In this document: piece after piece, positions 970-58,832 of the stretch
Position numbering within the stretch: the stretch's first letter is position 1
Layout: every line of letters starts with the position of its first letter
Source: a virus
Strand: one strand, 5' to 3'
Length of the DNA stretch: 64,000 nt
IMG/VR virus record: IMGVR_UViG_3300020048_005080
Program-made: the position numbers and the translations under genes
Notes under the pieces: generated by a model
The model's database searches: none
Seen by the model: the letters and a program-made list of their open reading frames with translations, nothing else
Told to the model about the DNA's origin: nothing

Positions 970-1209
970 TTAATACTTTATAAATTCTTTGATAATATAT
1001 TCTGGAGCAGGAAGAATGTCTAGTCTACTTGCAATCTCAGTTAAACCAAATTCTTTATCTGTCATTAGTTCTTCTCTTAATTGATCAGCATCCGTTTTAT
1101 TAGGCTCTTCCCAGTACCCAACGAAATGTAAGATGTCTTTCATTTCACCCTCTTGTTCAGGATCAATAACCATTAATCCGTACTTTATATCTTTTACGTC
1201 CTTATCCAT
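970..1209 (-). CDS. hypothetical protein
   Basis: 79-aa ORF, co-oriented and tightly packed with its neighbours. Confidence 0.45.
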   Translation of the reverse strand: MDKDVKDIKYGLMVIDPEQEGEMKDILHFVGYWEEPNKTDADQLREELMTDKEFGLTEIASRLDILPAPEYIIKEFIKY

Positions 1210-1744
1210 TTTTATTCGTTATTTTGTCTAGACTTTCTTTAGTCCTTTCTAATGTTTCGTTTGCTTTTGCTAATTTTTCAGGAAATAATGTCTCTGTAGG
1301 CTCTTCTATTTTTGACTCTTCCTCATCTCTCTTAAATATAGCATCCCAGTTTTCGCCCCACATTTTATCTATAGCATCTTTGTATTTAGGATCATCCGCC
1401 ACTAAATTCATTAGATCTTTATACATCCAATATGTAAATTTTAGTTCAGCTAGATATCCTTTACAGTAATCTCCATCAGGATGCTGTTTACAACTAGTTG
1501 CTGGACAGCATCCATCTTCCCCACATGCTTCGCATATTGGACAATAAGGGGATCTTAATTCTTCATCCATCTCTTTTAAAGGTGATCTTAATTCTTCATC
1601 CATCTCTTTTAATTCTTTTTGAATTCCCTTGTCATTAATAAATTTAGCATCTTCCCACGCTTCTTTTCTATCTCTCCATTTTATCCAGAGTCTAAAAAAA
1701 TCGTATATCAGTTTTATTTTATTCATCTTTTTTGAATTTTTCAA
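1202..1744 (-). CDS. hypothetical Cys-rich protein with internal tandem duplication
   Basis: It contains CPICEACGEDGCCPATSCKQH plus a duplicated KEMDEELRSP(L/Y) segment that corresponds to a 33-bp DNA tandem repeat near 1545-1610. Confidence 0.5.
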   Translation of the reverse strand: MKNSKKMNKIKLIYDFFRLWIKWRDRKEAWEDAKFINDKGIQKELKEMDEELRSPLKEMDEELRSPYCPICEACGEDGCCPATSCKQHPDGDYCKGYLAELKFTYWMYKDLMNLVADDPKYKDAIDKMWGENWDAIFKRDEEESKIEEPTETLFPEKLAKANETLERTKESLDKITNKNG

Positions 1745-10789: not shown

Positions 10790-10881
10790 GTAAAGATAGA
10801 AATTTCTTATTGATTAAAAAAACGTTTTAACGAAATTGGATAAATACTTTACTGAATTATAATATATAATGAAAGAATTCT
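10790..10881. promoter_or_regulatory. divergent promoter pair sharing a palindromic TTAAAAAAACGTTTTAA core
   Basis: The minus-oriented cassette AAACGTTTTTTTAATCAATAAGAAATTTCTATCTTTAC drives 10775. The + side, ACGTTTTAACGAAATTGGATAAATACTTTAC, drives 10882. Confidence 0.55.
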
Positions 10882-11283
10882 ATGGAACATTTATTGGAAT
10901 ATGAGAAATTCTCAGGTGATATTTTAAACGAAGCACAGATTGTATATGACGGAGTAAAAATAAGTGCAGCTGGCGACGGAACAGGTAGACTACTTCTAAC
11001 CTACGGTTCAACAAAAAGTTACTATAAGATTAAAGCTAAGGTAAAAAAATTACTAGTTGTTTGGTATGATGGACCAATAGCTGTAGTAAATGCTTGGGAA
11101 AATGAACAAAAAGAATGCTGGGTTAAAGATAATACTGGTAAGCTATTTAAACTTAATAAAGAAACTTTAAAAACTATCGCGGCAAAAGCAAAGGCAAAAG
11201 CTCCATCCATAGAATTAGCAGGAACCGGGGAAATTAAAGGAGTAGAAGGAACATATAATGCAACATTAACCAAAGTTGCTTAA
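10882..11283 (+). CDS. hypothetical protein (N-terminal MEHLLEYEKF tag)
   Basis: 133-aa ORF. Its N-terminus matches the recurring tag. Confidence 0.5.
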   Translation: MEHLLEYEKFSGDILNEAQIVYDGVKISAAGDGTGRLLLTYGSTKSYYKIKAKVKKLLVVWYDGPIAVVNAWENEQKECWVKDNTGKLFKLNKETLKTIAAKAKAKAPSIELAGTGEIKGVEGTYNATLTKVA

Positions 11284-15534: not shown

Positions 15535-15551
15535 AGGATATATAGTGTCGT

Positions 15552-16124
15552 ATGAGACACATAGAAGCTTACAGCTCATTTAAAAAAGAAACAATATCAG
15601 AAAATTTATCCTATCATCTAAATGAAGGCATAGGTATATTAGAGAGCGTTTTTAGATTGGAATCTGAAAGTTGGTTAGATCTAGTCAACGAATCAAGAGA
15701 TTTATATTATTCAGGAAAAATTGGTCTAACCGAAGATGAAATTTGGTTGGTCGGAACAGATGCTGGCAAAAAGGGAATATATGAGGGAAGAGAGGTTCTT
15801 CTCGACATACCTTTTGAAGATGTAGAAGAGCTACATGAAGCAGAGTATAGAGGTAGAAAAGTAGACCTCAATCGACCATTCAGAACACCTTCGGGGCCTA
15901 GGAAATTTGGCGTATATACCAAAAACGAAAAAGGCAATGTTGTTAAAGTCGGATTTGGTCAGCCAGGTATGAGAGTTAACAATAGCGATCCTAAAAAAGC
16001 AAGATCATTTCAGAAAAGAATGAGATGCGATAATCCAGGACCTAAATGGAGTGCTAAATACTGGTCTTGCAACGTGGCAAGATACAGAAAGCTTTTAGGA
16101 ATTAAATCAAGTAACCCGTGGTAA
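15552..16124 (+). CDS. hypothetical protein (N-terminal MRHIEAYSSF tag)
   Basis: 190-aa ORF. Confidence 0.5.
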   Translation: MRHIEAYSSFKKETISENLSYHLNEGIGILESVFRLESESWLDLVNESRDLYYSGKIGLTEDEIWLVGTDAGKKGIYEGREVLLDIPFEDVEELHEAEYRGRKVDLNRPFRTPSGPRKFGVYTKNEKGNVVKVGFGQPGMRVNNSDPKKARSFQKRMRCDNPGPKWSAKYWSCNVARYRKLLGIKSSNPW

Positions 16125-16465
16125 TGGAACATATAGAATTATACGAGAATTTTAATCAAAGAACAATGATTATTAAACACAGAAACTTTGGGGAGATTAA
16201 AATCGAACTCCAAGGGAGCCAAATAATGGATGTCGTAAATAATTCCAATGTTATGTTTCCCTTCGGTGTAGGTTCTTCATGGAACAGATCAATAGAGACT
16301 TGGGCTTGTAGAAACAACTTTATTAAAATTGAAACATGGATGAATAACCGAATGGCTAGACAAGAAGACACATGTCCGGAGGAAAAAGTAGCAGGGATTA
16401 GAGTTAAAGATATTCCACCTGGACATCCTCTAAGAATCATGTACCCAAATAAGTTTAAAAAATAA
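16124..16465 (+). CDS. hypothetical protein (N-terminal MEHIELYENF tag)
   Basis: ATG at 16124 with a TAATG overlap. The track starts at a GTG at 16118. Confidence 0.45.
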   Translation: MEHIELYENFNQRTMIIKHRNFGEIKIELQGSQIMDVVNNSNVMFPFGVGSSWNRSIETWACRNNFIKIETWMNNRMARQEDTCPEEKVAGIRVKDIPPGHPLRIMYPNKFKK

Positions 16466-17067
16466 TGAGATTTATTGCTATAATTATAGCGTCGTTCTTT
16501 TTTCTTTCAAATGCTGTAGATACAAATGCTGTAGATAATAAGAAGAGAGAGATTAAGGTTGATGCAGGAATATACACAGTGCTATATTCAGAAGCTCTAG
16601 AACAGCCTAAAGAAGTTTGGTACACAGTGGAATGTACAGACGGAAGGGTTTCTAGGAAAGGAATGGATTTTTACACTAACGATTCAATCTATACATCATC
16701 TAAAGAGGATTACGAAAATAACGAATGGGATAAAGGCCATATGGCACCTGCAGCGGATTTTTCTTGTGAAAAGACAACATTATATCAGACATTCTCTTAT
16801 CTTAATTGTTCTTTACAGCATCAGGATTTAAACAGAGGTGTATGGAGACTATTAGAATCTAGAGAAAGAGAGTTAGCAAAAAAGACCGATGTTGAAATTC
16901 ATATATTAGTAGACTTCACTAAAGGCACAAAGAAATTACCATCAGGTGCAACAGTACCAGGTGGATATAGAAAAGAAATAAGATATAGTGGGAAGACTGA
17001 GGTATATTATTTCAAAAATGAAAAACCTTTATCAAATTCTTTCGATAAGTATATCGTTAAGAATTAA
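16465..17067 (+). CDS. secreted DNA/RNA non-specific endonuclease (NucA/EndoG family)
   Basis: Signal peptide MRFIAIIIASFFFLSNA and the active-site motif DKGHMAPAADF, which corresponds to DRGH. Confidence 0.75.
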   Translation: MRFIAIIIASFFFLSNAVDTNAVDNKKREIKVDAGIYTVLYSEALEQPKEVWYTVECTDGRVSRKGMDFYTNDSIYTSSKEDYENNEWDKGHMAPAADFSCEKTTLYQTFSYLNCSLQHQDLNRGVWRLLESRERELAKKTDVEIHILVDFTKGTKKLPSGATVPGGYRKEIRYSGKTEVYYFKNEKPLSNSFDKYIVKN

Positions 17068-17924
17068 GCCATATTTGATGCCCCAGTAGTAGTAATATTA
17101 AATTGATTTGCTATCGCTGTAGCTTTTTCTAGTCCTCCTAAATATGTGCCAGAAACATCGTTACCTAAACCAGCATTTATATTAACTATACCTTTTAAAG
17201 CAGTATTTTGATCGGTGAATGCGTTGATATCTTTAGTACCATATTTTCTCTGCATCACATCATTTTTTGCACCGTTAATAAAGAATAATACTGCTGCTTC
17301 TGCTGCTACATCAATTTCATTTAATTGATCTGGATTATTAACAATATCTACTTTTCTACCTAATTTATTGTCCTTATTCAACATATCTTGGTATTTCTGA
17401 TAAAGACTTTTGAAAGTTATACCATTAAATCCTCTTCCTCTATATTTGTAACCGTCGCCAGGTGCTGTATTACCTGTGTTCCAACCGAAATTTTTAGTTG
17501 CTGCTTGTCCATAAACCATATCATAGAATCTAACATCATCTTTTTTGATTGTCTCTAATTCAGCATCGCTTACCGTGATTCTTTTTCCAAATATTTTTCG
17601 AATTCTATCATTAGAAGTGTTTCTGTAACTGGTTTCGTCTTGCGGAATAAATCCAGACTCTTTTCCTATACATCCAAGAATTGCTTTTTGAGTATACGGG
17701 TTAGTTATTCCGTGTCTTTTCATTGCATCCATAATAGCTTGAACGTTCTTAGCTTTGTCTCCAGATACCGGTATATTAGTTATAGATCCAGATATTGGAG
17801 ATGCACCAGTTTTAGATTGATCATTAGGATCACCAAATAACGCATTTGATAATTTCTTACCATAATCACCAAAAAGCTGTTCGTTAACTGCTTTGAATTC
17901 TTCTATAGATTTTAAATGTTTCAT
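17064..17924 (-). CDS. GH19-like muramidase with N-terminal targeting tag
   Basis: YRGRGFNGITFKSLYQKY...AAVLFFIN resembles the GH19 catalytic region. The N-terminus is MKHLKSIEEFKAVNEQLF. Confidence 0.55.
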   Translation of the reverse strand: MKHLKSIEEFKAVNEQLFGDYGKKLSNALFGDPNDQSKTGASPISGSITNIPVSGDKAKNVQAIMDAMKRHGITNPYTQKAILGCIGKESGFIPQDETSYRNTSNDRIRKIFGKRITVSDAELETIKKDDVRFYDMVYGQAATKNFGWNTGNTAPGDGYKYRGRGFNGITFKSLYQKYQDMLNKDNKLGRKVDIVNNPDQLNEIDVAAEAAVLFFINGAKNDVMQRKYGTKDINAFTDQNTALKGIVNINAGLGNDVSGTYLGGLEKATAIANQFNITTTGASNMA

Positions 17925-17987
17925 ATCGATTAATATTTAATATATATCCATTTTGAAAACATTAAATAGTTTTTTAGTATAACCATT

Positions 17988-18815: not shown

Positions 18816-19130
18816 ATGAGTAAAAAAGTTTATCTTATCAAAGGTGCATTAGTCGATACGGAAGGAAAAAAAGAATGGATAGAATCAATAACAGCTTCTA
18901 AAGAAAGAGCAAATAAAATAAAAGCTCAATTGAATCGTTCATTAGAGGATGAGATTATCGTATCAAAAGAAATATTTGATAAGTACACTAAAGAGGGTTC
19001 AGAAGAATTAGAATGGGGTAAAATGGAATTTCACACTGATAATATGACAGATGACGAATTCGAAAAGTTCTGTATTTATAGATACGGAACTAAGATGCCA
19101 TTTAAAATAGAAGTATCAGATCTTGTCTAG
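18816..19130 (+). CDS. hypothetical protein
   Basis: 104-aa ORF. Confidence 0.45.
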   Translation: MSKKVYLIKGALVDTEGKKEWIESITASKERANKIKAQLNRSLEDEIIVSKEIFDKYTKEGSEELEWGKMEFHTDNMTDDEFEKFCIYRYGTKMPFKIEVSDLV

Positions 19131-20002
19131 ATACTTCCTTTTAAATTTCTTCTACTAACAATAGCTTTTATTCTCCTTTCAGCTTTATTAGATACACCTC
19201 TAGCCCATTCAGCGGTTCTTTCAAACGATTCCCCAATTTGTCTAAAAGATTGGGGTTCTTTATTTTCATCTAATCCGTATTTAAGTATAGTGATTTGTCT
19301 TTCCATTGGTTTGAGCTCGGATAATATACTCATTATAGATTTTTTTAAATCCTCATTTATTATATTACTGTCTGTGCTTGTTTCAGATTCTATCCAATTG
19401 ATAGGACTAAAAGAATCATCATCACTAGCATTTGTGCTACTTTCTAAAGGAATCGATCTTGGTGTATTTTTAATAGTTTCTATAGCTGATGCTGATAATT
19501 GAATATCCGTGTTCTCTTCTATTATTAATAACATTTCATCAATCGAAGGTTCTCTTCCGTGATAAGAAATAAAGCTTTCTTCCAGAGTTTGGTATTGTCT
19601 TAATTGTTGTGTGATATTAGTAGGGATTCTAACAGATCTTGAATTATTGTTCAGATACAGAAATATATTTTTTCTGATATGCCATACAGCATAACTGATA
19701 AATTTAAAACCTGTAGACGGATCGAAAGTTTCTATAGCTTCTACTAGACCTTTATTACCTTCAGATATTAGATCCTCTAAAGGATTTTGTTGTGAAGCAT
19801 AAGCTTTAGCAACAGATACAACAAATCTTAGATTTGATTTTAATATAAGCTCTTTAGCTTTAAGATCTCCATTTTTTGATTTAACTGCTAATTCAGCTTC
19901 TTTCTCAGGACTTAATATTTCATACTTACTTATTTCAGTGAAATATCTAGATATATTATCGTTAGTATTTGTAATTCTATTGATAATCTTAAATTCCCTC
20001 AT
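19127..20002 (-). CDS. RNA polymerase sigma-70 family factor (divergent)
   Basis: Region 2 is LRFVVSVAKAYASQQNPLEDLISEGNKGLVEAIETFDPSTGFKFISYAVWHIRKNI. Region 4 is the helix-turn-helix SFRQIGESFERTAEWARGVSNKAERRIK. Confidence 0.75.
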   Translation of the reverse strand: MREFKIINRITNTNDNISRYFTEISKYEILSPEKEAELAVKSKNGDLKAKELILKSNLRFVVSVAKAYASQQNPLEDLISEGNKGLVEAIETFDPSTGFKFISYAVWHIRKNIFLYLNNNSRSVRIPTNITQQLRQYQTLEESFISYHGREPSIDEMLLIIEENTDIQLSASAIETIKNTPRSIPLESSTNASDDDSFSPINWIESETSTDSNIINEDLKKSIMSILSELKPMERQITILKYGLDENKEPQSFRQIGESFERTAEWARGVSNKAERRIKAIVSRRNLKGSI

Positions 20003-20657: not shown

Positions 20658-22184
20658 ATGATAAATCCAGCTCTGCTAACAGACGGGTATAAAACTGGGC
20701 ATCACCAGCAATATCCCAAGGGAACGACATTAGTCTATTCCAATTTTACACCAAGAAGCAACAAGTACGCACCTAAGGGATGTGATATGGTAGTTTCTTT
20801 CGGACAACAATTAATCATGAAGCAAATTCACGAGAGTTTTAGAAAAGATTTCTTTGATCAACCAAAAGAAGCAGTATGTAAAGAGATTAGAGAGGAGCTC
20901 TCTTTATACCTAGGTGTAGATTATGACACAAGTCATTTCGAAGCTCTTCATGATCTTGGACATCTTCCTATTAAAGTTAAAGCATTACCAGAAGGCACAT
21001 TGGTTCCTATTAAAGTTCCAGTTTTAACTATCTACAATACAAACCCAGATTTTTACTGGATAACAAATTATTTGGAAACCCTAGTTTCTAATCTTCTTTG
21101 GAAACCAATAACCTCAGCAACTATTGCATTCCAATACAAAAGAGTACTTACAGAATGGGCTCTTAAAACAAATCAAGAAGCTAAAGAATTTGTTTACTGG
21201 CAAGGACACGATTTCTCTATGAGAGGTTTAGATTCTATTGATGCTGTAGTTTCATCTGGACTTGGTCACTTAACATCATTCTACGGTACGGATTCTCTTC
21301 CAGCAATTTACGGAGCACGTAAATTCTACGGAGCAGAAGGATTTGTTGGAGGCTCAGTTCCTGCAACAGAACACTCAGTTATGTGTGCAGGTGGTAAAGA
21401 AGACGAGATTGATACGTTCAGAAGATTACTTGAAACATATCCTAAAGGAATTCTTTCTGTAGTATCTGATACATGGGATTTATGGAAAGTGTGTACAGAA
21501 CACGTAGTCACTTTGAAAGATGAAATTCTTGCTCGTGATGGTAAATTAGTTATACGTCCTGACTCAGGAGATCCGGTTGATATTCTTTGTGGGTGGGGTG
21601 GCTTTGATCCTGAAGGTGAAAGCGAAGAAGCTAAAAATGAGCCACAAAATAAAGGAGTAATTGAATTACTTTGGGACGTATTTGGCGGAACAGTCAATGC
21701 TCAAGGTTACAAAGTACTTGACCCACACATCGGAGCTATCTATGGGGATTCAATCACAATCGACAGAGCAAATGAAATCTGCGCAAGACTAGAAGCAAAA
21801 GGATTCGCATCAACAAATGTTGTATTAGGGGTTGGTTCTTTCACTTATCAATATAACACTCGTGACACATTTGGTTTTGCAATGAAAGCAACGTATGTCG
21901 AAGTAAATAAACCAAAATTCGAAGGCGATTTCAATCCAGAAGGACGTGAGATCTTTAAAGATCCTATCACAGATGATGGAACAAAAAAATCTGCAACGGG
22001 ATTATTAAGTGTTCACAGTCATGATGGCGAATTGGTTTTAATTGACAAATGTACATGGGAAGGTGAAGAGGTTAGTTTATTACAAACAATTTACCAAGAC
22101 GGTATTTTTCACAATCCAGTTACTCTAAATGAAATCAGAGAGAAATTAGATAAAGCTATACATTTACAATTCGAATTAGCTTAA
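20658..22184 (+). CDS. nadV: nicotinamide phosphoribosyltransferase (NAMPT family)
   Basis: N-terminus MINPALLTDGYKTGHHQQYPKGT. The 508-aa length and colinear conservation are typical of NadV/NAMPT. Confidence 0.85.
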   Translation: MINPALLTDGYKTGHHQQYPKGTTLVYSNFTPRSNKYAPKGCDMVVSFGQQLIMKQIHESFRKDFFDQPKEAVCKEIREELSLYLGVDYDTSHFEALHDLGHLPIKVKALPEGTLVPIKVPVLTIYNTNPDFYWITNYLETLVSNLLWKPITSATIAFQYKRVLTEWALKTNQEAKEFVYWQGHDFSMRGLDSIDAVVSSGLGHLTSFYGTDSLPAIYGARKFYGAEGFVGGSVPATEHSVMCAGGKEDEIDTFRRLLETYPKGILSVVSDTWDLWKVCTEHVVTLKDEILARDGKLVIRPDSGDPVDILCGWGGFDPEGESEEAKNEPQNKGVIELLWDVFGGTVNAQGYKVLDPHIGAIYGDSITIDRANEICARLEAKGFASTNVVLGVGSFTYQYNTRDTFGFAMKATYVEVNKPKFEGDFNPEGREIFKDPITDDGTKKSATGLLSVHSHDGELVLIDKCTWEGEEVSLLQTIYQDGIFHNPVTLNEIREKLDKAIHLQFELA

Positions 22185-22193
22185 CAAAATATT

Positions 22194-22233
22194 CCATAGC
22201 AGCAATATCCCTGTGTTGCTATGGATTTTAAAA
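22194..22233 (+). terminator. rho-independent terminator
   Basis: CCATAGCAGCAA-loop-TTGCTATGG hairpin followed by ATTTTAAAATTT. Confidence 0.6.
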
Positions 22234-22269
22234 TTTCGGGGATTTATTTAATCATATAAATCAAAAAAA

Positions 22270-24162
22270 ATGTTTATGAATTTAATTTTAGATTACTGGT
22301 GGACCATCATCCCAGTACTTGCGTTGGTCTTTTACAAGTTCACGCTCCGTTTCTTCTTCGGTATGGTAATTATACCAGAAGATAAAATTGGTTTAGTAAC
22401 CAAAAAATTCGTTCTCTTTGGAGACAACAAATCTTTACCAGACGGTAAGATTATTGCTCTAAATGGAGAACCAGGGTATCAAGCAGATACATTAGCACCA
22501 GGTTTATACTGGGCTTATTGGGTTTGGCAATACTCAATTGATCAAGCAGATTTAATAATCGTTGAGAAAGGAAAATTAGGTCTTATCACTGCAAAAGATG
22601 GTATGTCACTACCTACTGGTTCTATCTTAGCTCGCCACGTAAAATGTGACGATTATCAAGACACACGTGCATTCTTAACTAACGGGGGTCAAAGAGGTAA
22701 ACAAGTTGGATATCTTAACAACGGGGTTTATCGAATCAATACACAACTATTTGAAGTGTTTCAAGCAGATATCACTTACATTGAAGATGGAATGGTAGGT
22801 ATTATAACAACACTTGATGGTAAGCCACTAGATCAAAATGCTATTGCAGGATCACCAGTTAATGACCATAATAACTTCCAAGATTTTGATAGATTCTTAG
22901 ATCATGGAGGACAAAGAGGTTTACAAACTCAAGTTATCCAAGCAGGTTCTTATACATTAAACCCTTGGGCAGTTGAGGTAGAGAAGAAAGAAATGACTTC
23001 TATTCCTATTGGTCACGTAGGTGTTGTTATATCATACGTTGGAGAAGAAGGAATTGATCAAACTGGAGACACTTTCAAACACGGTAACATCGTTAAGAAA
23101 GGACAAAAAGGAGTTTGGATTACACCTTTAGATCCAGGTAAATACGCGGTTAACCCGTACACTCAAAAAATCGAGATCGTACCTACAACAAACTTAGTAC
23201 TTAACTGGGCAAATGCTAGAAGTGAATCACACAACTTAGATAAGAACTTAAGTACTATCACAGTGCGTTCTAAAGACGGTTTCCCTTTCAATTTGGACGT
23301 ATCTCAAATTATCCATATTCCTTCTACTGAAGCACCTAAGGTAATTGCTCGATTTGGTTCTATGTCAAACTTAGTTTCTCAGGTACTTGAGCCAACAATT
23401 GGTAACTACTTCCGTAACTCTGCACAAGATTCAGATGTTATCTCTTTCTTAAGTACACGTCAGACAAGACAAAATGCTGCTAAAGATTCAATCTCTAAAG
23501 TATTAGAGGAATACAACGTACATGCAGTAGACACATTGATTGGAGATATCACACCTCCAGCAGAACTTATGAAAACTCTTACTGATCGTAAGATCGCACA
23601 AGAGGAGGAAATAACTTTCGAAACTCAGCGTAAAGCTCAAGACCAACGTAAGACTTTAGAGTCTGCTAAGTCATTAGCTGATATGCAAGGTAAAATGGTT
23701 GCTGCACAGCAATCAGTAGAAATCTCACAACGTGAAGCAGAAGCATCTGTTAAGAGATCAGAAGGTGAAGCTCAGGCAATGAAACTTAAAGCTGGTGCTC
23801 AGGCAGAAGCTAAAAAGATGATGGCTGAAGCAGATGCTGCTCAGATCAAATTAACGGGAGACGCAGAGGCAAGTAAGATTGAAGCAATAGGTAAAGCAAC
23901 TGCTGAAGCTTATGATCTTCAGGTTAAGGCAATGGGATCTGATAACTTTGGTAAATTGAAAGTTACCGAAATGATTGGGACAAATGGAATTAAAATTATT
24001 CCGGAAATACTTATCTCTGGCAATGACGGAGGTAACGGGCCAATCTCAGGACTTCTCGGAATGGAGTTATTAAAACAGATTACAGAAAAAAATAAATCTG
24101 AAGTTTTAACAGAAACTTCTAGTAAAAAACGAAACAATTCAGGAGAAGGTGAAGTAAAATAA
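22270..24162 (+). CDS. flotillin / SPFH (band 7) domain membrane protein
   Basis: N-terminal TM, an SPFH body, and the C-terminal Ala/Glu-rich coiled coil AQAEAKKMMAEADAAQIKLTGDAEASKIEAIGKATAEAY typical of flotillins/YqiK. Confidence 0.8.
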   Translation: MFMNLILDYWWTIIPVLALVFYKFTLRFFFGMVIIPEDKIGLVTKKFVLFGDNKSLPDGKIIALNGEPGYQADTLAPGLYWAYWVWQYSIDQADLIIVEKGKLGLITAKDGMSLPTGSILARHVKCDDYQDTRAFLTNGGQRGKQVGYLNNGVYRINTQLFEVFQADITYIEDGMVGIITTLDGKPLDQNAIAGSPVNDHNNFQDFDRFLDHGGQRGLQTQVIQAGSYTLNPWAVEVEKKEMTSIPIGHVGVVISYVGEEGIDQTGDTFKHGNIVKKGQKGVWITPLDPGKYAVNPYTQKIEIVPTTNLVLNWANARSESHNLDKNLSTITVRSKDGFPFNLDVSQIIHIPSTEAPKVIARFGSMSNLVSQVLEPTIGNYFRNSAQDSDVISFLSTRQTRQNAAKDSISKVLEEYNVHAVDTLIGDITPPAELMKTLTDRKIAQEEEITFETQRKAQDQRKTLESAKSLADMQGKMVAAQQSVEISQREAEASVKRSEGEAQAMKLKAGAQAEAKKMMAEADAAQIKLTGDAEASKIEAIGKATAEAYDLQVKAMGSDNFGKLKVTEMIGTNGIKIIPEILISGNDGGNGPISGLLGMELLKQITEKNKSEVLTETSSKKRNNSGEGEVK

Positions 24163-24660: not shown

Positions 24661-25551
24661 ATGGATTTTTTAGAAACAGCAAAGAACTTAGAAACCACGC
24701 ACAGTCACGGTACAATTACATATTTAGATTTTAATCTAGATCCTAGTACATCAGATAAGGATTATCCACATTTGAAATTAAACACTAAGACTAAACATAT
24801 AGAATTACAGACATATCAGGTAAAGTCTAGAATTGACGAAGATGTTATAGCTGATTTAAAATTATTTCATGCTGTAGATGGAGAGGGAATGGTAAGGTCC
24901 GTATTAGAGTCTGAATCATTAATTCAAAGACAGAAGAATCTATTAAATATCTATAATATTTTAGGAGAAGAAACAGCAGGAGAGATTCTAACAGGATGGA
25001 AAAAAACTATAAAAAAAATATTTCCAAAAATTAGATATAAAACATACTTAATAAATGACTCAATAGAGGGATCAAAATTATTAATATATAGTATTATAAG
25101 TAGATCACATTTAATTGCAGCTAGAAGCAGAAGAGGACCTGCAAATTTTATTATATGTAACGGACAGGTTGGTTCTTTAATACAGGATCACCCATCTTTT
25201 GTTTATATAAATAATAATATTCCAGTCAGTTTGTCCGATAAAATTAGATCTATAGGAAGTATAGCAGGAAATATAGAAGTATTTATTAATCCTTTCCAAA
25301 GATTTACTGACAACAATATTATAATAGGAAGAAAAACACAGGAGCATGAGCCAGGAGTTTATATTGTGGAAAATAAAGGTTCCAAAGAGATTATGGAAAC
25401 TGCTATGTGGGAAGAATCAAAAATGATTAAATCAAAATCACTTCGTGAAAAATTAGCTTTTGTAGATACTGAAAATGCAAGCAGAAATTTTGTAAAATTC
25501 GAAGTGGAATTTACTAAAAAACCACTATGGAGAAGAATGTTATTCGTATAA
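24661..25551 (+). CDS. hypothetical protein
   Basis: 296-aa ORF. Confidence 0.5.
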   Translation: MDFLETAKNLETTHSHGTITYLDFNLDPSTSDKDYPHLKLNTKTKHIELQTYQVKSRIDEDVIADLKLFHAVDGEGMVRSVLESESLIQRQKNLLNIYNILGEETAGEILTGWKKTIKKIFPKIRYKTYLINDSIEGSKLLIYSIISRSHLIAARSRRGPANFIICNGQVGSLIQDHPSFVYINNNIPVSLSDKIRSIGSIAGNIEVFINPFQRFTDNNIIIGRKTQEHEPGVYIVENKGSKEIMETAMWEESKMIKSKSLREKLAFVDTENASRNFVKFEVEFTKKPLWRRMLFV

Positions 25552-29538: not shown

Positions 29539-30327
29539 TTAAATAAGCCCTTTAATCTCTGCTAGAATCTCTCTAAATCGAGCTAATTCTTTAATCCCTT
29601 TGTGATAAGCTAGACCTTCCTCTAATAGATCATACGTTTTAACCACCGTACTTCCTTCGTTATCTTTGTTTGCTAGAACTAACACAGTGTCAGCAATAGC
29701 ACAAGATGTTTCAATATCATGTGATACGACAACCAAAGTGTTCATTTCATCTAAGTTTGATACTTTAATAAGAAGTTCAACAACTTTATCTTTCATGATT
29801 GTGTCCAATCCAGAGAATGGTTCGTCCAAAAGAATAAATTTGTTACCTGCAAGAACTTGTTGTAAAATAGACACCCTCTGCTTTTGTCCTCCTGATAAAT
29901 CACAAGGGTATTTACTAAGCTGATCTGTTAATTCAAAATGCTCAGCATATTGTTTGATTGTCTCTATTTTCTCTTTACCCTTCATACTAGTTAAAGCTAA
30001 TGAAAGATTCGTCATAATAGTTCGATGATTAAATAGGTGATAATCCTGTGGTACCACACCCATTTCTCCAGTTTTAACCGGGTGTTGATCTGCTCCAACT
30101 TTAATATCTCCCGAATTGGCTTTGTTGTATCCAGATAGAAGTTTAAATAAAGATGTTTTACCACATCCGCTTCTTCCACATATTGCTACGATTTGCCCTT
30201 GTGTCATACCAGGTCTTGTAACATTATGGATCTGCATATTGATATCTTTTAGTATTGGCTTATCGTCATAAGTGAGACTCACATTATTGACAGATAAGAT
30301 CAATTCTTCTTTTTTGTAGTCAATCAT
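29539..30327 (-). CDS. ABC transporter ATP-binding protein (NitT/TauT-like)
   Basis: Walker A is GRSGCGKTS, the ABC signature is LSGGQKQRV, and Walker B is ILLDEPFSGLD. Confidence 0.85.
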   Translation of the reverse strand: MIDYKKEELILSVNNVSLTYDDKPILKDINMQIHNVTRPGMTQGQIVAICGRSGCGKTSLFKLLSGYNKANSGDIKVGADQHPVKTGEMGVVPQDYHLFNHRTIMTNLSLALTSMKGKEKIETIKQYAEHFELTDQLSKYPCDLSGGQKQRVSILQQVLAGNKFILLDEPFSGLDTIMKDKVVELLIKVSNLDEMNTLVVVSHDIETSCAIADTVLVLANKDNEGSTVVKTYDLLEEGLAYHKGIKELARFREILAEIKGLI

Positions 30328-31136: not shown

Positions 31137-31151
31137 CTTATTTATATAATA

Positions 31152-31190
31152 AGGGGCTACTCAGTTGAGAATAGCCCCTTTTATTGTTTT
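31152..31190 (-). terminator. intrinsic terminator-like hairpin
   Basis: AGGGGCTA-12 nt loop-TAGCCCCT followed by TTTATTGTTTTT. Confidence 0.5.
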
Positions 31191-31192
31191 TA

Positions 31193-34870: not shown

Positions 34871-36031
34871 TTATTTTACTACATCCAAAGCTATTTGAGC
34901 GGATCCTTTTTTTAATATACTTGGTTCAGCTGTTATAAATTTGAATTCGAAAGCTTGATCAGGATCTAATTGATTTCCTTTTTTAGCTTTATTAATATAG
35001 ACTTTATCTCCGGGGTTTAGTGTAACTGCTTTAGGAAAAGACGATAATTTTCTGTAAACTGGAATGGTGGGATTTCCCCCCATATATCTCTCAAACTTAT
35101 CCATCGGATATCCTTTAAATATTACTGGTGTTTCTTTAAGTAAATCGGTTTTATTCTCTTTGTCACCTAAATAATTCAAATACATTTGCTCTGTATTTAA
35201 TGGATCGTCAGCAACCTCATAAATATTCTTTTTTCCTGTTTCCGGATTAACAATAGAAATAGTAAGACCTTTAGATATCTGAATTCTTTTGTAATCCACA
35301 TTTGCATAATTTATCTCCTTCTTTTTCATCTCACCTTTTAGTGCAGGTCCTAATTTCCATTCTTTCTCTTCTACCTGGGCTTTTAATTTATTAACAATAA
35401 ATAATTCTAAATCCTCGGTAAGATCCACTATTAATTCAAAATTTTGTCCATAAGGATATCCATATGCTGAATTATTATAGAAAGCAAATGGCTTAAGATT
35501 GCTTACTCTTTCAGAGTCTTTATACATATCATCTTTCCCTTTCTCATCAGATAGATAATATTTAATAGTAACTCCCACTATATTAGATTTAACTAGTCCC
35601 CAAACTTTATCTCCTTCTCTATAAAATCCAGGCTTATCTGGTCCTTTTCCTCCTTTGAAAATAGGATAAAGCTTAGTATCATCCTTATAGAAACATATTC
35701 TTCCAAGATCTAGCATCTGTGCTTCCTTATCATTATCAGGAATCCAAGCTGCTAAGTTTTTACTATTAGTTAGAATATTTAAAGCTTTACTAATGTATTT
35801 ATTTACGGAAGTATTATCCATCTTTAATAATCTAATACCATCATAGAGAGATATTTTATTATTTTTTGAATCTAAAAATCCTGTCAATTCAAATCCGAAT
35901 CGATAATCATTATCATAGGGTACAATTCTTGATTGCAGATCTTGTAAAGATGTGCGTTCTATCCAATGTGCGTCGTATTTTATTTCGTCTAATCTAGAGA
36001 AATATGATTCAAATAATAATAAATGTTCCAT
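34871..36031 (-). CDS. hypothetical protein (N-terminal MEHLLLFESYF tag)
   Basis: 386-aa ORF. Confidence 0.55.
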   Translation of the reverse strand: MEHLLLFESYFSRLDEIKYDAHWIERTSLQDLQSRIVPYDNDYRFGFELTGFLDSKNNKISLYDGIRLLKMDNTSVNKYISKALNILTNSKNLAAWIPDNDKEAQMLDLGRICFYKDDTKLYPIFKGGKGPDKPGFYREGDKVWGLVKSNIVGVTIKYYLSDEKGKDDMYKDSERVSNLKPFAFYNNSAYGYPYGQNFELIVDLTEDLELFIVNKLKAQVEEKEWKLGPALKGEMKKKEINYANVDYKRIQISKGLTISIVNPETGKKNIYEVADDPLNTEQMYLNYLGDKENKTDLLKETPVIFKGYPMDKFERYMGGNPTIPVYRKLSSFPKAVTLNPGDKVYINKAKKGNQLDPDQAFEFKFITAEPSILKKGSAQIALDVVK

Positions 36032-50348: not shown

Positions 50349-51122
50349 TTATGCTAGAGGAGCTCCAGATTCCCATGTTTTTTTGTATGGCCCAACGTAT
50401 CTGAATGATGCAGTTTGTGAAGGATTTCTTGCAGCAACACTAGACCAGCTATTTAGATTATAGTTCATTTCAATCTGTCCTTTTTTGTCTCCTTTAAATC
50501 CACCTGATGAATTTGAAATTATATTTCCTCCATCTATAACAACACCAACGTGACCGGGTTTTGATGCTCTAGCAGTTAGTATTATATCTCCAGGTTGTGA
50601 TCCATTTTTCCAATCTGTAATTTTTTGCCAAACTCCGCCGCTCTTTTTACTCTCAGAATCCATATAACTCCAAAGAGATCCCGTTCCAAGAGTAATAGCT
50701 CCTGATCCAGCTATAGCATATCCAGTTGCTCTATAGAATATAATAGAAGCTGCTGCTGCACATCCCAAATTACCTCCACCTGTACCCGGTATTTTTCTTG
50801 TTGATACATTAAGATTAGCATAAGCTGAATTGACTATGTTTCCTATAGGACCTCTAAGTGGTTGTTTTAATTCTGCTGAGTCATTTTTGTCAGTGATACC
50901 CACTGTTGATCCAAAAGAATCCATTTGACTTGTGTTTACATTAGCTATAGGAACTAATGCTTGGCCTAATCCTACTGGAGATTCTGCTGCAAAAAGATTA
51001 GGTTCTGCCATTCCTGTATCCTCAACAGAAATTCCCATCAATTTATTAAACATGGCTATTTCAGATCTAAACAATTGCTCGTTTACTATTTTAAAATTCT
51101 CTATACTTTTGAGATGTTTCAT
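50349..51122 (-). CDS. CHAP/NlpC-P60-like peptidase with N-terminal targeting tag
   Basis: MKHLKSIENFKIVNEQLF at the N-terminus. GCAAAASIIFY carries the candidate catalytic Cys, and PGHVGVVID the candidate His. Confidence 0.6.
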   Translation of the reverse strand: MKHLKSIENFKIVNEQLFRSEIAMFNKLMGISVEDTGMAEPNLFAAESPVGLGQALVPIANVNTSQMDSFGSTVGITDKNDSAELKQPLRGPIGNIVNSAYANLNVSTRKIPGTGGGNLGCAAAASIIFYRATGYAIAGSGAITLGTGSLWSYMDSESKKSGGVWQKITDWKNGSQPGDIILTARASKPGHVGVVIDGGNIISNSSGGFKGDKKGQIEMNYNLNSWSSVAARNPSQTASFRYVGPYKKTWESGAPLA

Positions 51123-51124
51123 TA

Positions 51125-51913
51125 TTAAATGTATTTCATTAATGCTTCAACTGCATCATTATTTGTATCCATGTGATCGTTTTTATTATTCGATACTGAT
51201 TTTGAAACAGCCTGGGAAATTGAGTTTCTTGCTGTATTGTTATCTGCTCCAAAACTAGTATAGTAATATTCAACCTTTCCTTTATTTTCTCTAGCTAGCT
51301 TAGTATAAAAATCAGATACTGAAGCATTACCCATCCATATATCAACAAGATATATTTTATCAAAGGCATCAGCGCCAACACTTTTTAATAATTCCATTCC
51401 TGGTTTATATCCCCCGGAAAATAAATATAGTATCTTTTTAGATGGATTTATATCTTTTTTCATTACTGAATCATAAGAAGCCTTACCATTGACATTTGAA
51501 TTAGATGCGACAAAAAGATTAAGCTTGTTTCCTGTTTTATTAAAGTAATCGTACATATACTCTCCACTTTGTTTTCCTCCTACTGGAATTCCACCAAAAA
51601 CAATAGCTAATGGCGATGTTTTACTTGCACCATCACTAAATTTACCATAATCTCCTACACTTCCTGCTGCCTTACCTGGTGCAGGCCCTGTTCCCCCTTT
51701 ATTATCTTTAGAATCTCCTTCCGCAGATTTAGGATCCATAATTTTTAAAAGACCCTTAGTGAGTTCCCTAGTATCATTACCGAATAATTGTTCGTTTACT
51801 TGCTTAAACTCATCTATTGATTTTAAATGCCTCATTCTATTTCTTTTATTATGTATATAACCCAATGTTGAAATAATAAAAACCAGTGCTATAATAACAT
51901 AAGATCTTATCAT
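51125..51913 (-). CDS. hypothetical protein carrying the MRHLKSIDEFKQVNEQLF tag (the true start may be the internal Met at 51835)
   Basis: The tag starts at residue 27 of the longest ORF. The upstream 26 aa are hydrophobic. Confidence 0.5.
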   Translation of the reverse strand: MIRSYVIIALVFIISTLGYIHNKRNRMRHLKSIDEFKQVNEQLFGNDTRELTKGLLKIMDPKSAEGDSKDNKGGTGPAPGKAAGSVGDYGKFSDGASKTSPLAIVFGGIPVGGKQSGEYMYDYFNKTGNKLNLFVASNSNVNGKASYDSVMKKDINPSKKILYLFSGGYKPGMELLKSVGADAFDKIYLVDIWMGNASVSDFYTKLARENKGKVEYYYTSFGADNNTARNSISQAVSKSVSNNKNDHMDTNNDAVEALMKYI

Positions 51914-51949
51914 ATACTATATATCAAAAAAAATGTACGTGTTTTTAAA

Positions 51950-52961: not shown

Positions 52962-53070
52962 ATTATCTTTATTTAGTTATAGTGAGATTGTATGAAATTA
53001 TTTCGAATATATAATATACAATAATATGTAGTAAATTCTTATATTTACAAAAATACTAATATAAAACCCT

Positions 53071-53597: not shown

Positions 53598-53634
53598 ATA
53601 TCCTATATATTAAAGAATGTATAATATATAATAT

Positions 53635-54622: not shown

Positions 54623-55054
54623 TTATACGTCATCATCATCATTCTGTGTAAATCTAGATATTCCTGATGCAGCTCTTGTGTATGCTCCAAAATCCATTTC
54701 GTTTCCTGGAACATTTTCGAAATTACCAATTTGATTGAATTCTCTATCAAATACAGCAACATCAAAAGATAACGGAGATAACGTTTTTGTAATATATCTG
54801 GTAAACCCACCATCTCCTGTCTTTTTATGAGCCATAAAAAGACCTGCTTTTTCTAAATCACCAGATCTTAAGTCTGTTGCTGATTCTTTTAAAGATCCTA
54901 AAAAATTACCTAGATCTTTGCTATTTAATTCAGCAGGCATAGATGATTGTATAGGATTCGTAATTTGATCATCGAAAGGCATCCAATCAAAAATCAGATC
55001 TGTTGATTTACCTATATTTGCATCAAAGTTTTCGAATAACTTAATATATCTCAT
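54623..55054 (-). CDS. hypothetical protein, paralog A (MRYIKLFENFD ... RFTQNDDDDV)
   Basis: It shares its N-terminal tag and poly-Asp C-terminus with 55755..56396. Confidence 0.5.
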   Translation of the reverse strand: MRYIKLFENFDANIGKSTDLIFDWMPFDDQITNPIQSSMPAELNSKDLGNFLGSLKESATDLRSGDLEKAGLFMAHKKTGDGGFTRYITKTLSPLSFDVAVFDREFNQIGNFENVPGNEMDFGAYTRAASGISRFTQNDDDDV

Positions 55055-55211
55055 TTTATATTATTTTTTATAGATTATATATCCTTAGGAAAAACAAAAA
55101 TATAATAAAGAACTAAATGAAATAATAAAAACAGCAAATATTAGATATTCTTGGATCTCACTTAATGGTTTACATTTAAGATCACAATTAGGATCCCCGC
55201 AATAAACACAT

Positions 55212-55545: not shown

Positions 55546-55758
55546 ATGAATTTAAAAAAAGAATATATCAAAATCATATCAGAAAAAATATCTCTAAAAG
55601 AAGAAGATTTTAGCCATATAGAGAAAGAAATAGTAAATCTAGGGTTTGATATGGTAAAGGAGAAAATAGAAGAAATAAGAGAGCTTAATGATGAAATAAT
55701 AAGGCTTAAAATAGAAATATCAAATCTTAAATCTTATAATGACAATAATGATTATTAA
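55546..55758 (+). CDS. small coiled-coil protein
   Basis: 70-aa ORF. Confidence 0.3.
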   Translation: MNLKKEYIKIISEKISLKEEDFSHIEKEIVNLGFDMVKEKIEEIRELNDEIIRLKIEISNLKSYNDNNDY

Positions 55759-56396
55759 TCATCATCATCATCTCTAGTAAATCTATAAATACCTACTGCA
55801 CCTCTAGTAAGATCTGGGGTTTCTTTTCTAAACATTTCACATTTATCTTTTAAACCCTGTGGAAGTATAGGTTTGGTTGTATCAGTCCTTGAATCGTCGA
55901 AATTTATAAAATACTCAGCAAGATATTTTATAAGATTAATCATATCTTCTTTTTTTATCCATTCGGATTTATATTCCATATTATCTAATTCGTACTCGTT
56001 GACTTCGTCCTTATCTAAATAAAAAGCGGATTCAATTTCAATATCACTTAATTGATATTCTCCACCTTCTGGAGGATCATTATAAGTTCCTGTATAGTAT
56101 TTAGAAAATCCTCCACTGAATAAAATAACACAACTTATGTAAACCAAGGATTCAGATTTTTCTACAGGGAAACTAAAAATCATTTCCAAACTGCCATCAC
56201 CATCTTCATCAGGTTCAGCTTCATTTGTTCCGTCATATTCAACTTCAAACAATGATTCCTTTTTATCTTTTTCTAGCATATATGAATATAAGCCAAGAAA
56301 GCATAACTCCTCAGGCTCTAACTTATTAAGCCAAAATATTGAATCAGGCCATAGGTAATGAGAATCAAAATTTTCAAATAATTTTATGTTTTTCAT
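55755..56396 (-). CDS. hypothetical protein, paralog B (MKNIKLFENFD ... RFTRDDDDD)
   Basis: See 54623..55054. Confidence 0.5.
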   Translation of the reverse strand: MKNIKLFENFDSHYLWPDSIFWLNKLEPEELCFLGLYSYMLEKDKKESLFEVEYDGTNEAEPDEDGDGSLEMIFSFPVEKSESLVYISCVILFSGGFSKYYTGTYNDPPEGGEYQLSDIEIESAFYLDKDEVNEYELDNMEYKSEWIKKEDMINLIKYLAEYFINFDDSRTDTTKPILPQGLKDKCEMFRKETPDLTRGAVGIYRFTRDDDDD

Positions 56397-57119: not shown

Positions 57120-58832
57120 TTAAATAAATTCTAAATTGTCAAAAGATTTAAGATAGCTCATTTCCCAAATTTGTGACTCTTTAACTTTCTCTTTTTTCTT
57201 CTCGACTTTACCTTCTGATTTATTAACAGCTTTCTTAATAAGCTTCACATCTTTTTTAGTAACATTCTTAGGATCTATTTTATGTTTAGGAGCTAATGGG
57301 TTGTGTGATCCTTTTCCACTTGGTTTATGTACTGCGTGATGTGATATACCTGTATGTAATTCGTGCTTATATTCTTTTAATAATGTATTAGCTTCAGCAA
57401 AAGATTTAATTTGTAGATCAAACCATTTTTTAACACCATCAACTGTAGGCTGTATATATTTTGCTATCACTTTAGCTGCAGAGCTTGTCATAGGCTTAAC
57501 CAATTTATCCAGTCCTTTAGCTATAATTTTTGTAAATGTATTATTTGCTTTCTTCGATATAGAACTAATAAATGAAGTTATTTTAGCAGGCATATTTATT
57601 AAGAAATCAAAACCTTTAACTATACCCTGGCCAGCTTTAAGAATAAAGTCCCAAATCCATCCAAGAACAGAAGAAAGTATTGATGATGATGCTAAAGCAA
57701 CAACACCCGTTAATATTTTACCAATTGCTCCTGCTCCCGCTTTTTTAAGAGCTGCTTTAGCTACCTCGTCTCCAGCTTTTTTTGATAAATCTACTCCGAA
57801 TTTTTTTGCTGTAGCTACTCCTGCTGCTTCTATAAAGTGGTGTATTGCTCCTCCTGGCTTAGCTATAGTTTTAGCTGCTCCTGATAATGCAGATTTAGTA
57901 GAAGTACCAACTGCTACACTTTCTGTACCTGATGCAGGATTTATAATAGATGTTCCAGCTTTAACAACATCATATATTCCTAATGCTACCATACCGCCTC
58001 CTATTACTACTTCGGGCAAAGCCTGAGAAACACCAGAAGCCATTTTTGCTAGCGGGGTTATAGTTTGGTTTTTATCAAGTATTTTTTTAGAATTTTTTAT
58101 TTTTACCCATCCTTCGTAAAGATGAATTCCCCCACCTAGTGCCTGAAATACACCAGCAGCTACAGCAAGAGGTGGTTCTAGCCAAGAAAAAGCAGCAGAT
58201 CCTAGAGCTACAGCTCCTAATATACCTAATATAGCAGATATAACACTCATAGCTAAAGCTGCCCAATCTAGCCATGTCATGTCTTTTACGAATTGTACAA
58301 CTACATTTCCACATGTTTTAAGAAATTCCCAAGCTTTTTGAGCTCCATAAGATAAAGCGTCGTATCCTTTTTTAAGAACGGATGCAGTTTTTTTAATTGC
58401 ACTCTTAGCGACAGATTTTACTTTATTCCATCCGGCTTTTATATCGCTCCAGCCAATTCCCCATTCATTTATATTATTGCTTCTTCCTCTAGCAACAGCA
58501 AATGTACTTTTTTCAATAACGAATCCTTCGCCATTTTTCATTAGTATCATATGTGTATCTGCATCAAGATATACGAATTGTCCAGGTGTTTCTAACCAAT
58601 GAGACTTGTTCTCATAAAGCATTGATATTTCATAGTAAGCATGAGCTTTTTCTAATAAAGCTTCATCAACGGATCCTTCAGATTCTAGCAAAGGGCCTCT
58701 GAACATATTTTTAAATTCTGCCTTGCTATACTTGGGTGCTGATCCGTTCTCGTTTAAAGAGAAAACATCATCAAGATCTATAAGATTAGATTCATTAGAA
58801 AATTGATCAAAATCAGATATAATATTAGTCAT
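57120..58832 (-). CDS. large Ala/Gly/Lys-rich membrane-associated protein
   Basis: 570 aa with a central hydrophobic Gly/Ala-rich region and a highly basic C-terminal tail. Confidence 0.55.
   Translation of the reverse strand: MTNIISDFDQFSNESNLIDLDDVFSLNENGSAPKYSKAEFKNMFRGPLLESEGSVDEALLEKAHAYYEISMLYENKSHWLETPGQFVYLDADTHMILMKNGEGFVIEKSTFAVARGRSNNINEWGIGWSDIKAGWNKVKSVAKSAIKKTASVLKKGYDALSYGAQKAWEFLKTCGNVVVQFVKDMTWLDWAALAMSVISAILGILGAVALGSAAFSWLEPPLAVAAGVFQALGGGIHLYEGWVKIKNSKKILDKNQTITPLAKMASGVSQALPEVVIGGGMVALGIYDVVKAGTSIINPASGTESVAVGTSTKSALSGAAKTIAKPGGAIHHFIEAAGVATAKKFGVDLSKKAGDEVAKAALKKAGAGAIGKILTGVVALASSSILSSVLGWIWDFILKAGQGIVKGFDFLINMPAKITSFISSISKKANNTFTKIIAKGLDKLVKPMTSSAAKVIAKYIQPTVDGVKKWFDLQIKSFAEANTLLKEYKHELHTGISHHAVHKPSGKGSHNPLAPKHKIDPKNVTKKDVKLIKKAVNKSEGKVEKKKEKVKESQIWEMSYLKSFDNLEFI

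Follow-up and report, generated by a model that had tools for sequence, protein, structure and literature searches.

The 64,000-nucleotide stretch of viral DNA analysed here (IMG/VR record IMGVR_UViG_3300020048_005080, hereafter the window) encodes nine proteins that begin with close variants of one short peptide, referred to below as the leader. Our analyses, which rest on sequence comparison and on analogy with the capsid-targeting sequence (CTS) of bacteriophage T4, indicate that the leader is probably an N-terminal capsid-targeting propeptide of a T4-like phage. It is widespread in large environmental T4-like phages with Bacteroidota-type features. A CTS-like address removed by a protease of the gp21 type had been proposed in the initial annotation of this DNA, and all the computational tests run support that proposal; core binding, cleavage, packaging and ejection we infer by analogy.

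Under the proposed mechanism, about ten leader residues (M-K/R/E-H/Y/N-L/I-x-x-Phi-E-x-F) would form a short amphipathic helix which, late in infection, would dock the cargo onto the scaffolding core of the assembling prohead. After a spacer of 0-4 residues (up to 5 in the diverged leaders of the window) would follow the tripeptide [ILV]-x-E, and a prohead serine protease of the gp21 family would cut after its glutamate, freeing the cargo inside the head, to be ejected with the DNA into the next host cell. The cargo encoded in the window would comprise a GH19 muramidase and a CHAP peptidase, plausibly opening the peptidoglycan at entry, plus at least seven proteins of unknown function.

A leader peptide conserved at the protein level

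Leader genes are designated below by the coordinate of the leader's start codon. Nine open reading frame (ORF) starts, heading ORFs of 113-386 aa, carry the pattern M-[KRE]-[HYN]-[LI]-x-x-[IYF]-[ESD]-x-[FY]. The regular expression M[KRE][HYN][LI][KEL]x[IYF][ESD]x[FY] gave exactly nine matches in the six-frame translation of the window, all heading ORFs; every N-terminus initially listed is present in the sequence and the pattern occurs nowhere else in the six frames. Eight of the nine matches lie 1-8 codons from the upstream stop, and that of 51835 lies 27 codons from it, while 200 dinucleotide-preserving shuffles averaged 0.005 matches and never gave more than one. The N-termini were found at the positions first assigned to them, but two starts had to be corrected: the motif ATG at 16124 lies inside an ORF opened by a GTG at 16118, two codons in, and the leader of the ORF at 51125..51913 begins at an internal Met at 51835.

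Synonymous codons vary between leader copies (TTA/CTC, TCT/AGT/TCA, GAA/GAG, TTC/TTT), and the DNA upstream of the copies is not alignable, except for an 8-nt box described below. Since synonymous sites vary and upstream DNA cannot be aligned, the constraint is placed at the peptide level: conservation of the leader acts on the protein, not on the DNA. The same two observations ruled out a nucleotide-level element, whether promoter or leader RNA, as the source of the motif. The claim that the protein bodies are unrelated held in BLASTP comparisons for most pairs of the nine, with two exceptions, namely 17924 and 51835, which share weak similarity in the linker region (30% over ~130 aa), and 55054 and 56396, which share a C-terminal motif G..RFT..DDDD, i.e. 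G(I)(S/Y)RFT(Q/R)(N/D)DDDD.

Beyond the window, the VNEQLF-type leader was sought with a degenerate DNA pattern, which recovered orthologues on seven IMG/VR stretches, the leader being retained in them. Another DNA pattern, encoding M[KR]xIKLFExF, gave at least 148 in-frame matches on at least 120 viral stretches, in contigs of up to 480 kb. Among the matches listed, nearly all lay 0-25 codons after a stop and headed ORFs of 80-560 aa with unrelated bodies, and a related leader with the consensus MKHIKLFEQF-[ILV]-N-E was found on at least 140 unrelated proteins of large viral contigs. For the 123 complete leader proteins among these listed matches, a Pfam family was absent in most and very diverse in the remainder, including ATP-grasp, GNAT, CHAP, DUF5824, ART-PolyVal, Acb1/2',5'-RNA-ligase, AAA, amine oxidase, methyltransferase, cytidylyltransferase and others. 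Bacterial and archaeal genomes totalling 596 Gb, by contrast, encode M[KR]xIKLFExF on 62 stretches only, mostly as chance matches in tiny ORFs or at the N-termini of Dcm methylases, and a few contigs of metagenome-assembled genomes that carry it resemble mis-binned phage. The leader is virus-specific and almost absent from cellular genomes, Bacteroidota included, a distribution which, together with the variety of the proteins it heads, bears out the initial description of a modular address. No paper in the searchable literature contains KLFEQF, KLFEEF or KLFENF as a literal string.

A position-specific scoring matrix (PSSM) was trained on leaders of other genomes, close orthologues of 17924 among them, so that the score of 17924 itself is partly circular. 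Scores were unequal, with 27-32 bits for five window proteins and 8-18 bits for 16124, 36031 and 15552; control maxima were 17.2 and 14.8 bits over 15,426 internal positions and 8.4 bits over 348 internal Met positions. The helical hydrophobic moment of the leader falls in the top 5% of its own shuffles.

Selection on the leader could be followed in the GH19 enzyme 17924, for which 662 homologues were found. Orthologues down to ~50% identity retain the leader, with a spacer of 0-4 residues from F10 to [LIVM]-[ND]-E, and M1 and E15 are invariant in an alignment of 50 orthologous sequences. In this alignment the leader has a mean column entropy of 1.1-1.3 and the catalytic domain one of 0.85-1.27, whereas the linker (residues 19-45) reaches 2.17. 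The leader is under protein-level selection and is as conserved as the GH19 catalytic domain, unlike the linker. Absence of the motif from orthologues had been named as a finding that would speak against the initial proposal; it is instead kept both on the seven IMG/VR stretches and throughout the alignment.

The Glu-ending tripeptide, T4-type head genes and a late-promoter-like box

Leader positions 11-13 were left free in the search pattern. Among the matches listed, [ILVM]-x-E nevertheless stands there in 76 of 136 leaders (56%), against 1.6% per position in the bodies, the composition of the three positions being [I39 V27 L17]-[N51 S15 T11 A10]-[E88]; the residue after the glutamate (P1') is mostly Ala or Ser, and composition is random from position 14. 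Six of the nine window leaders carry [ILV]-x-E ending at residues 15-17 (three have VNE, the others LNE, ISE and LDE). The glutamate-containing tail had been said to suit a gp21-like cleavage specificity, and the [ILV]-x-E leader end and the invariant glutamate of the 50 orthologues are consistent with such a specificity.

The 77 largest untagged ORFs neighbouring leader genes were compared with Pfam, and T4 head proteins were used in local phmmer searches. Pfam matches among these neighbours include Portal_T4, Peptidase_S77 (the gp21 family), Gp23, a T4-type terminase, UvsW and sheath, as well as a type IX secretion system (T9SS) sorting domain, which suggests Bacteroidota hosts; the host of the window phage probably belongs to the Bacteroidota. 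Homologues of gp20 and gp21 adjoin leader genes in contigs L052 and L113, the latter having the order portal, 110-aa acidic leader protein, protease fused to a long repeat region, capsid protein. A portal-based search yielded 80 related loci, in almost all of which the next gene encodes a leader-variant protein of 110-125 aa with an acidic tail (leader variants MKIIKTFEDFISE, MKYVKLFEQFIKE and MKVIKTIESFAKE), and in ~70 contigs this acidic protein sits between portal and protease, the position of genes 67/68 in T4. In a marine group of these phages, which has a gp55-like late sigma factor, the portal-adjacent leader proteins end in a conserved acidic DDPLAG(L/M). The C-terminal acidic motifs of the portal-adjacent proteins and of 55054 and 56396 might serve as an additional signal at the end opposite the leader. 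A search for a prohead protease, as initially recommended, was thus successful in L052, L113 and ~70 relatives, all with Peptidase_S77, whereas the window lineage could be read only to the start of Portal_T4.

The capsid proteins of these related loci begin MANL[LI]NE/AEI (a slash marks the proposed cut), and T4 gp23 reads FLTE/AEIGG, with gp21 cleaving it between FLTE and AEIGG. The tripeptide that closes the leader is therefore the one found at the homologous maturation site in the capsid protein of these phages. The proteases of the same group begin ...LLIVE/MSSS, and T4 gp21 begins MNEPQLLIE, whose LLIE site fits the published cleavage logo (PMC9026906). In the protease-scaffold fusion, [ILVM]xE occurs at 5.5-6.6% of positions, with a 14-residue [VLI]-A-E periodicity.

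A separate acidic protein of 657 aa is encoded at L070:8737-10710, flanked by five leader genes within 14 kb. It has three repeats of ~55 aa shared with the L113 protease scaffold and three ESVVTE/A motifs. The ORF was considered as a protease and rejected, the resemblance being confined to the acidic repeat; it has the look of a core or internal protein subject to heavy processing.

The 8-nt box, in its strict form [AG]ATATATA, occurs 25 times in the window, 20 of these at most 80 nt upstream of a gene start, and is spaced 12-30 nt from start codons. It stands ahead of seven of the nine leader genes, the other two (16124 and 51122) lying directly downstream of boxed leader genes, and also ahead of an untagged endolysin gene. 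A close relative of the window lineage has it before the sheath gene, both tube genes, a gp4-like gene and the portal, and in the marine group it precedes the portal at 81 of 82 loci, the leader core gene at 70 of 77 and the protease at 71 of 71. The late promoter of T4, TATAAATA, is not enriched upstream of leader genes; [AG]ATATATA differs from it and is. The box is best read as the predicted late promoter of this clade, and by sharing it the leader genes would be co-regulated with virion genes as a late class. Further strict boxes in the window lie at 5299, 39004, 42831, 54546, 58851 and 62067.

Leader genes of the window and their genomic surroundings

The leader genes and the boxes ahead of them are collected in Table 1, together with two ORFs whose N-termini resemble the leader.

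Table 1. Leader-bearing genes of the window, possible further members and associated late-promoter-like boxes (a slash marks the proposed cleavage position).
Feature	Coordinates	Strand	Leader or box sequence	Remarks
GH19-type muramidase/chitinase-like enzyme	17064..17924	-	MKHLKSIEEFKAVNE/QLF	Leader encoded at 17871-17924
CHAP/NlpC-P60-like peptidase	50349..51122	-	MKHLKSIENFKIVNE/QLF	Leader encoded at 51069-51122
Protein of unknown function	51125..51913	-	MRHLKSIDEFKQVNE/QLF	Leader from internal Met at 51835
143-aa leader protein	54623..55054	-	MRYIKLFENFD...	C-terminus GISRFTQNDDDDV, shared with 55755-56396
213-aa leader protein	55755..56396	-	MKNIKLFENFD...	C-terminus GIYRFTRDDDDD
190-aa protein, diverged leader	15552..16124	+	MRHIEAYSSFKKETISE/N	phrog_7595; leader kept in orthologue; PSSM 8.0 bits
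113-aa protein	16124..16465	+	MEHIELYENF	PSSM 18.4 bits
133-aa protein, diverged leader	10882..11283	+	MEHLLEYEKFSGDILNE/A	LNE/A at residues 15-18; PSSM 4.6 bits
386-aa protein	34871..36031	-	MEHLLLFESYFSRLDE/I	PSSM 13.7 bits
Possible tenth leader, ~173-aa protein	1202..1723	-	MNKIKLIYDFF...	PSSM 16.4 bits; 174-aa product in public gene calls
Possible diverged leader, 570-aa protein	57120..58832	-	MTNIISDFDQFSNE/S	One-residue insertion; visual similarity only
Box	17941..17948	-	GATATATA	Upstream of 17064-17924
Equivalent boxes	10861-10868, 15537-15544	+		Ahead of leader genes
Equivalent boxes	36036-36043, 51918-51925, 55076-55083, 56401-56408	-		Ahead of leader genes

Three of the tagged proteins had been taken for lytic enzymes. 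This stands for 17924, which matches phrog_181 endolysin (E=4.5e-25) and no Pfam family. Its layout is leader, variable linker to about residue 45 and catalytic domain at about residues 46-280; in an AlphaFold2 model, the mean predicted local distance difference test score (pLDDT) was 82.5, with the domain above 84 and residues 1-40, which lie outside the fold, at 40-54. Foldseek matched this model with probability 1.00 to the SPN1S endolysin 4ok7 and the GH19 endolysin 9eoi, and the modelled structure confirms a GH19-type endolysin fold. For 51122, the CHAP assignment exceeds the Pfam cut-off only in an orthologue (20.9 bits against a cut-off of 26, with 27.9 in L014), and a solved-structure search returned no useful match; the third, 51835, belongs to no enzymatic family detectable in Pfam, PHROG and solved-structure searches. 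A canonical untagged endolysin with PG_binding_1 and GH19 domains is encoded at 38175-38987, which makes the tagged GH19 protein an additional muralytic enzyme. Under the capsid-targeting reading, virions would carry the tagged GH19 and CHAP proteins as wall-degrading enzymes separate from this endolysin.

The ORF at 51125-51913 has a further peculiarity. Public gene calls give its product a 236-aa form starting at 51835, immediately before which lies an in-frame hydrophobic extension of 26 codons, MIRSYVIIALVFIISTLGYIHNKRNR, starting at 51913 (51835-51913, minus strand). This transmembrane-like extension is kept in frame in five divergent orthologues, and the late box stands 12 nt ahead of the upstream ATG, so that two isoforms are possible; the arrangement suggests that the gene makes two products, one predicted to be membrane-anchored and the other starting at the leader. 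The CHAP gene, directly downstream, is probably part of the same transcription unit, and 16124-16465, which overlaps the end of 15552-16124, probably belongs to the same operon as the latter. In 54623-55054 no [ILV]xE follows the leader, and INE or VNE is present in its orthologues. The ORF at 57120-58832, for which no Pfam family was matched, has a late box at 58851-58858.

The window corresponds to ~64 kb of the 154-kb contig IMGVR_UViG_3300042307_001176, with protein identities of 88-100%. Further leaders in this lineage include MKHIKLFEAFLAKK, MKHIKSIDQFINEQLF, MKNIRTFENYD, MRHIRIYEQFD, MKHLKKYQSNNSEINE and MKTFKDFIYEKINE. The last begins a 194-aa protein at L290:17398-17979, ~15 kb before the start of the window, and its first residues, MKTFKDFIYE, are identical to the T4 CTS MKTYQEFIAE at 6 of 10 positions, three further substitutions being judged conservative. 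Gene order in the lineage runs from T4-ordered replication genes (UvsX-like, gp47/46-like) to a T4-type TerL, sheath and two tube genes, and a relative of 89% identity adds gp55-like, gp4-like and gp2 genes and the first 100 residues of Portal_T4. A final homologue search past that point returned portal fragments on short contigs only; by analogy with every related block seen, protease and capsid genes should follow the portal in the window lineage.

The window itself has a GC content of 32%, and Shine-Dalgarno sequences are missing from the A-rich regions ahead of its genes. Phage-type genes include those for a Dda-like helicase, an RNA ligase, an I-TevI-like endonuclease, thymidylate synthase, NAMPT and a ClpP-like protein. 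The last, a 190-aa ClpP-family protein at 46430-47002 (minus strand), matches several PHROG 'head maturation protease' families; its Dda-like helicase and replication-gene surroundings, and the use of gp21 by T4-type heads, weigh against it as the prohead protease, and it may be either an auxiliary ClpP or a protein with some head function. Among non-structural genes, 24661-25551 (plus strand) encodes a 296-aa paralogue of the N-terminal half of T4 gp23 (Pfam Gp23), with 22-25% tblastn identity to many T4-like capsid proteins and a similar paralogue in the huge phage LR756500 (L302:42596-43534). Two full-length sigma-70-family factors are encoded in the window, at 19127-20002 and 58872-59738 (both minus strand), and the lineage adds a gp55-like late factor and another sigma70_r2/r4 protein (L396). 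Host-like genes are found at 20658-24162, 29539-32968, 40255-42814 and 51981-54522, and the set comprises NAMPT, Band-7/SPFH, ABC-transporter permease and ATPase, OmpA-like, GAF/PAS sensor kinase and response regulator, deoxyhypusine synthase and S-adenosylmethionine (AdoMet) decarboxylase genes. The 512-aa product of 60510-62048 (minus strand), which has a late box ahead of its gene, a repeat rich in Ala/Pro/Thr/Gly close to the N-terminus (AAPTPAAPAATGAAPAATGAAP...) and no Pfam family, may be a virion protein.

Alternative readings and known systems

Several observations weigh against a capsid-targeting propeptide. Two of the nine N-termini, MEHLLEYEKF (10882) and MRHIEAYSSF (15552), score weakly with the PSSM at 4.6 and 8.0 bits, and three (16124, 55054 and 56396) have no nearby [ILV]xE. 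Leader genes are not enriched overall near head modules, and in Tenacibaculum phage PTm1 and the huge phage LR756500, which have the head module in common with the carriers, no leaders were seen there. The portal-adjacent leader protein was tried as a homologue of gp67/gp68, with no match by hhalign or among PHROGs. The leader at 51835 follows a conserved in-frame transmembrane helix, an arrangement without T4 precedent, and some of the cargo (NMNAT-like, amine oxidase, ATP-grasp) is metabolic-looking and would make unusual capsid contents. The head genes of the window lineage were read only to the first 100 Portal_T4 residues, short of protease and capsid, and no close cultured relative was found by megablast or by tblastn with several proteins and the 20-aa leader.

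Some of these points would suit a portable address to a site other than the capsid, such as a phage assembly site, a membrane complex, the baseplate or tail, or a shared chaperone or activator, with the glutamate tripeptide serving as a binding surface. Portability and virus specificity would be expected of any address system, leader genes are dispersed along the genome, metabolic enzymes of cytoplasmic type make up much of the cargo, and one leader stands behind a conserved transmembrane helix. We nevertheless regard such a destination as unlikely, because the leader end matches both the gp21 motif and the start of the capsid protein of the same phages, conservation ends right after the glutamate, an acidic leader protein lies between portal and protease, and no candidate receptor for another destination was identified. 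A further reading, to which we attach rather little weight, would make the leader the sorting signal of an unknown phage-encoded localisation system, recruiting for example to a membrane-associated or intracellular phage compartment, with ~10% of the proteome as clients; the transmembrane-plus-leader isoform of 51125-51913 would then be its membrane-anchored member, a corollary that we hold as doubtful as the system itself.

It is also conceivable, albeit improbable, that the leader is an inherited N-terminal helix spread by duplication or recombination, for instance as a cassette-shuffling linker, with no sorting function. Kinship among the three VNEQLF proteins is clear in the leader and extends partly into the linker, tandem leader genes are frequent, and for T-even phages the exchange of cassettes at CTS-coding segments has been under discussion (Repoila 1994, as cited in PMC12373910). 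The scrambled synonymous sites and unalignable flanks, however, leave no DNA-level homology for recombination, and the leader, with M1 and the glutamate invariant, is held as tightly as the catalytic domain in orthologues as distant as 50% identity, although the linker next to it drifts.

Selection on the first codons for translation initiation, through an A/T-rich unstructured mRNA start in hosts that dispense with Shine-Dalgarno sequences, has very little to recommend it. The upstream regions, A-rich and devoid of Shine-Dalgarno sequences, agree with it, and so do the leader codons, which are A/T-rich and A-ending slightly more often than those of the protein bodies; but synonymous codon pairs are used near body frequencies, His is encoded by CAC in 57% of leaders, the conservation is of specific residues, the distal [ILV]xE included, and the motif is on only ~10% of genes and absent from the highly expressed capsid, sheath and tube genes. 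A secretion or membrane-targeting signal exporting lytic enzymes, which had been offered initially as the alternative and for which the two peptidoglycan-acting cargo proteins and the transmembrane helix before one leader could be cited, is scarcely credible, since charged K/E and single hydrophobic residues alternate in the leader with no hydrophobic core, twin arginine or lipobox in it, cellular genomes, Bacteroidota included, make essentially no use of it, and much of the cargo is of cytoplasmic type, with ADP-ribosyltransferase, Acb1-like, GNAT, ATP-grasp, AAA and methyltransferase enzymes.

The capsid-targeting reading finds its closest parallel in the T-even phages, whose ip genes, coding for internal proteins, were found by their leader. 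The T4 CTS is MKTYQEFIAE (PMC8442874), in which targeting depends on residues 4 and 7 and processing on residues 8 and 10, gp21 cutting after L/I-X-E (PMC9026906), and the internal proteins of T-even phages have only the leader in common (PMC3012670, PMC12373910). The present leader is likewise a 10-13-residue N-terminal peptide on otherwise unrelated proteins, with an M-K start, hydrophobic positions 4 and 7, a predicted amphipathic helix and an [ILV]-x-E end, which is FIAE in some copies; its genes are apparently late, its carriers have T4-type gp20, gp21, gp23 and gp55, and its cargo includes likely host-directed and anti-defence enzymes. M-K, positions 4/7 and F-[ILV]-x-E agree between the two leaders, ten residues being too few to establish common descent. 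Unlike the CTS, the consensus here is longer, MKHIKLFEQF[ILV]NE, with a variable spacer before the glutamate; the hosts are apparently Bacteroidota rather than enterobacteria; carriers number at least nine in 64 kb and at least 14 in the lineage, against three internal proteins in T4; the cargo consists mostly of enzymes of 80-570 aa and not of small basic proteins; a transmembrane helix precedes one copy; and packaging and cleavage are here predicted from sequence.

Comparison may be extended to the T4 core proteins processed by gp21. The acidic leader protein of 110-125 aa recalls gp67 and gp68 by its gene position, although no sequence or profile similarity to them was detectable. Large enzymes among the leader cargo, such as ADP-ribosyltransferase, recall Alt, and the C-terminal acidic motif of two window proteins recalls the processing of Alt at both termini, but the ADP-ribosyltransferase cargo is of the 'polyvalent protein' type and not an Alt homologue. 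In the giant phages phiKZ, 201phi2-1 and SPN3US, which also have large genomes and ejected cargo, ~10-20 head-internal proteins per genome are cut after Glu by a distant relative of gp21; their propeptides, which are found on head, inner-body and ejection proteins and have S/A-X-E sites, are nevertheless long rather than one shared short leader, their P3 residue is S/A/G where I/L/V is found here, and they form a different phage lineage. Encapsulin cargo-loading peptides and P22 scaffold fusions similarly load arbitrary proteins into an HK97-fold shell by a short portable peptide, but these unrelated systems use C-terminal signals or scaffold domains that are not cut by a maturation protease.

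The leader principle of T-even phages is thus known, while this particular leader, its spread, the number of its carriers and the diversity of its cargo enzymes appear to be undescribed. If the capsid-targeting reading is true, a 13-residue string would be enough to identify in sequence data the head-packed, injected proteins of a large and abundant group of environmental T4-like phages, with genomes of ~150-400 kb and hosts that are probably Bacteroidota. Hundreds of 'hypothetical proteins' could then be grouped together as candidate effectors that act early in infection. These would include peptidoglycan hydrolases, ADP-ribosyltransferases, Acb1-like nucleases, acetyltransferases and ATP-grasp enzymes. 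The leader would also provide a ready packaging tag for the engineering of Bacteroidota phages. The CTS principle of T4 would, moreover, be ancient and used far beyond the T-even phages.

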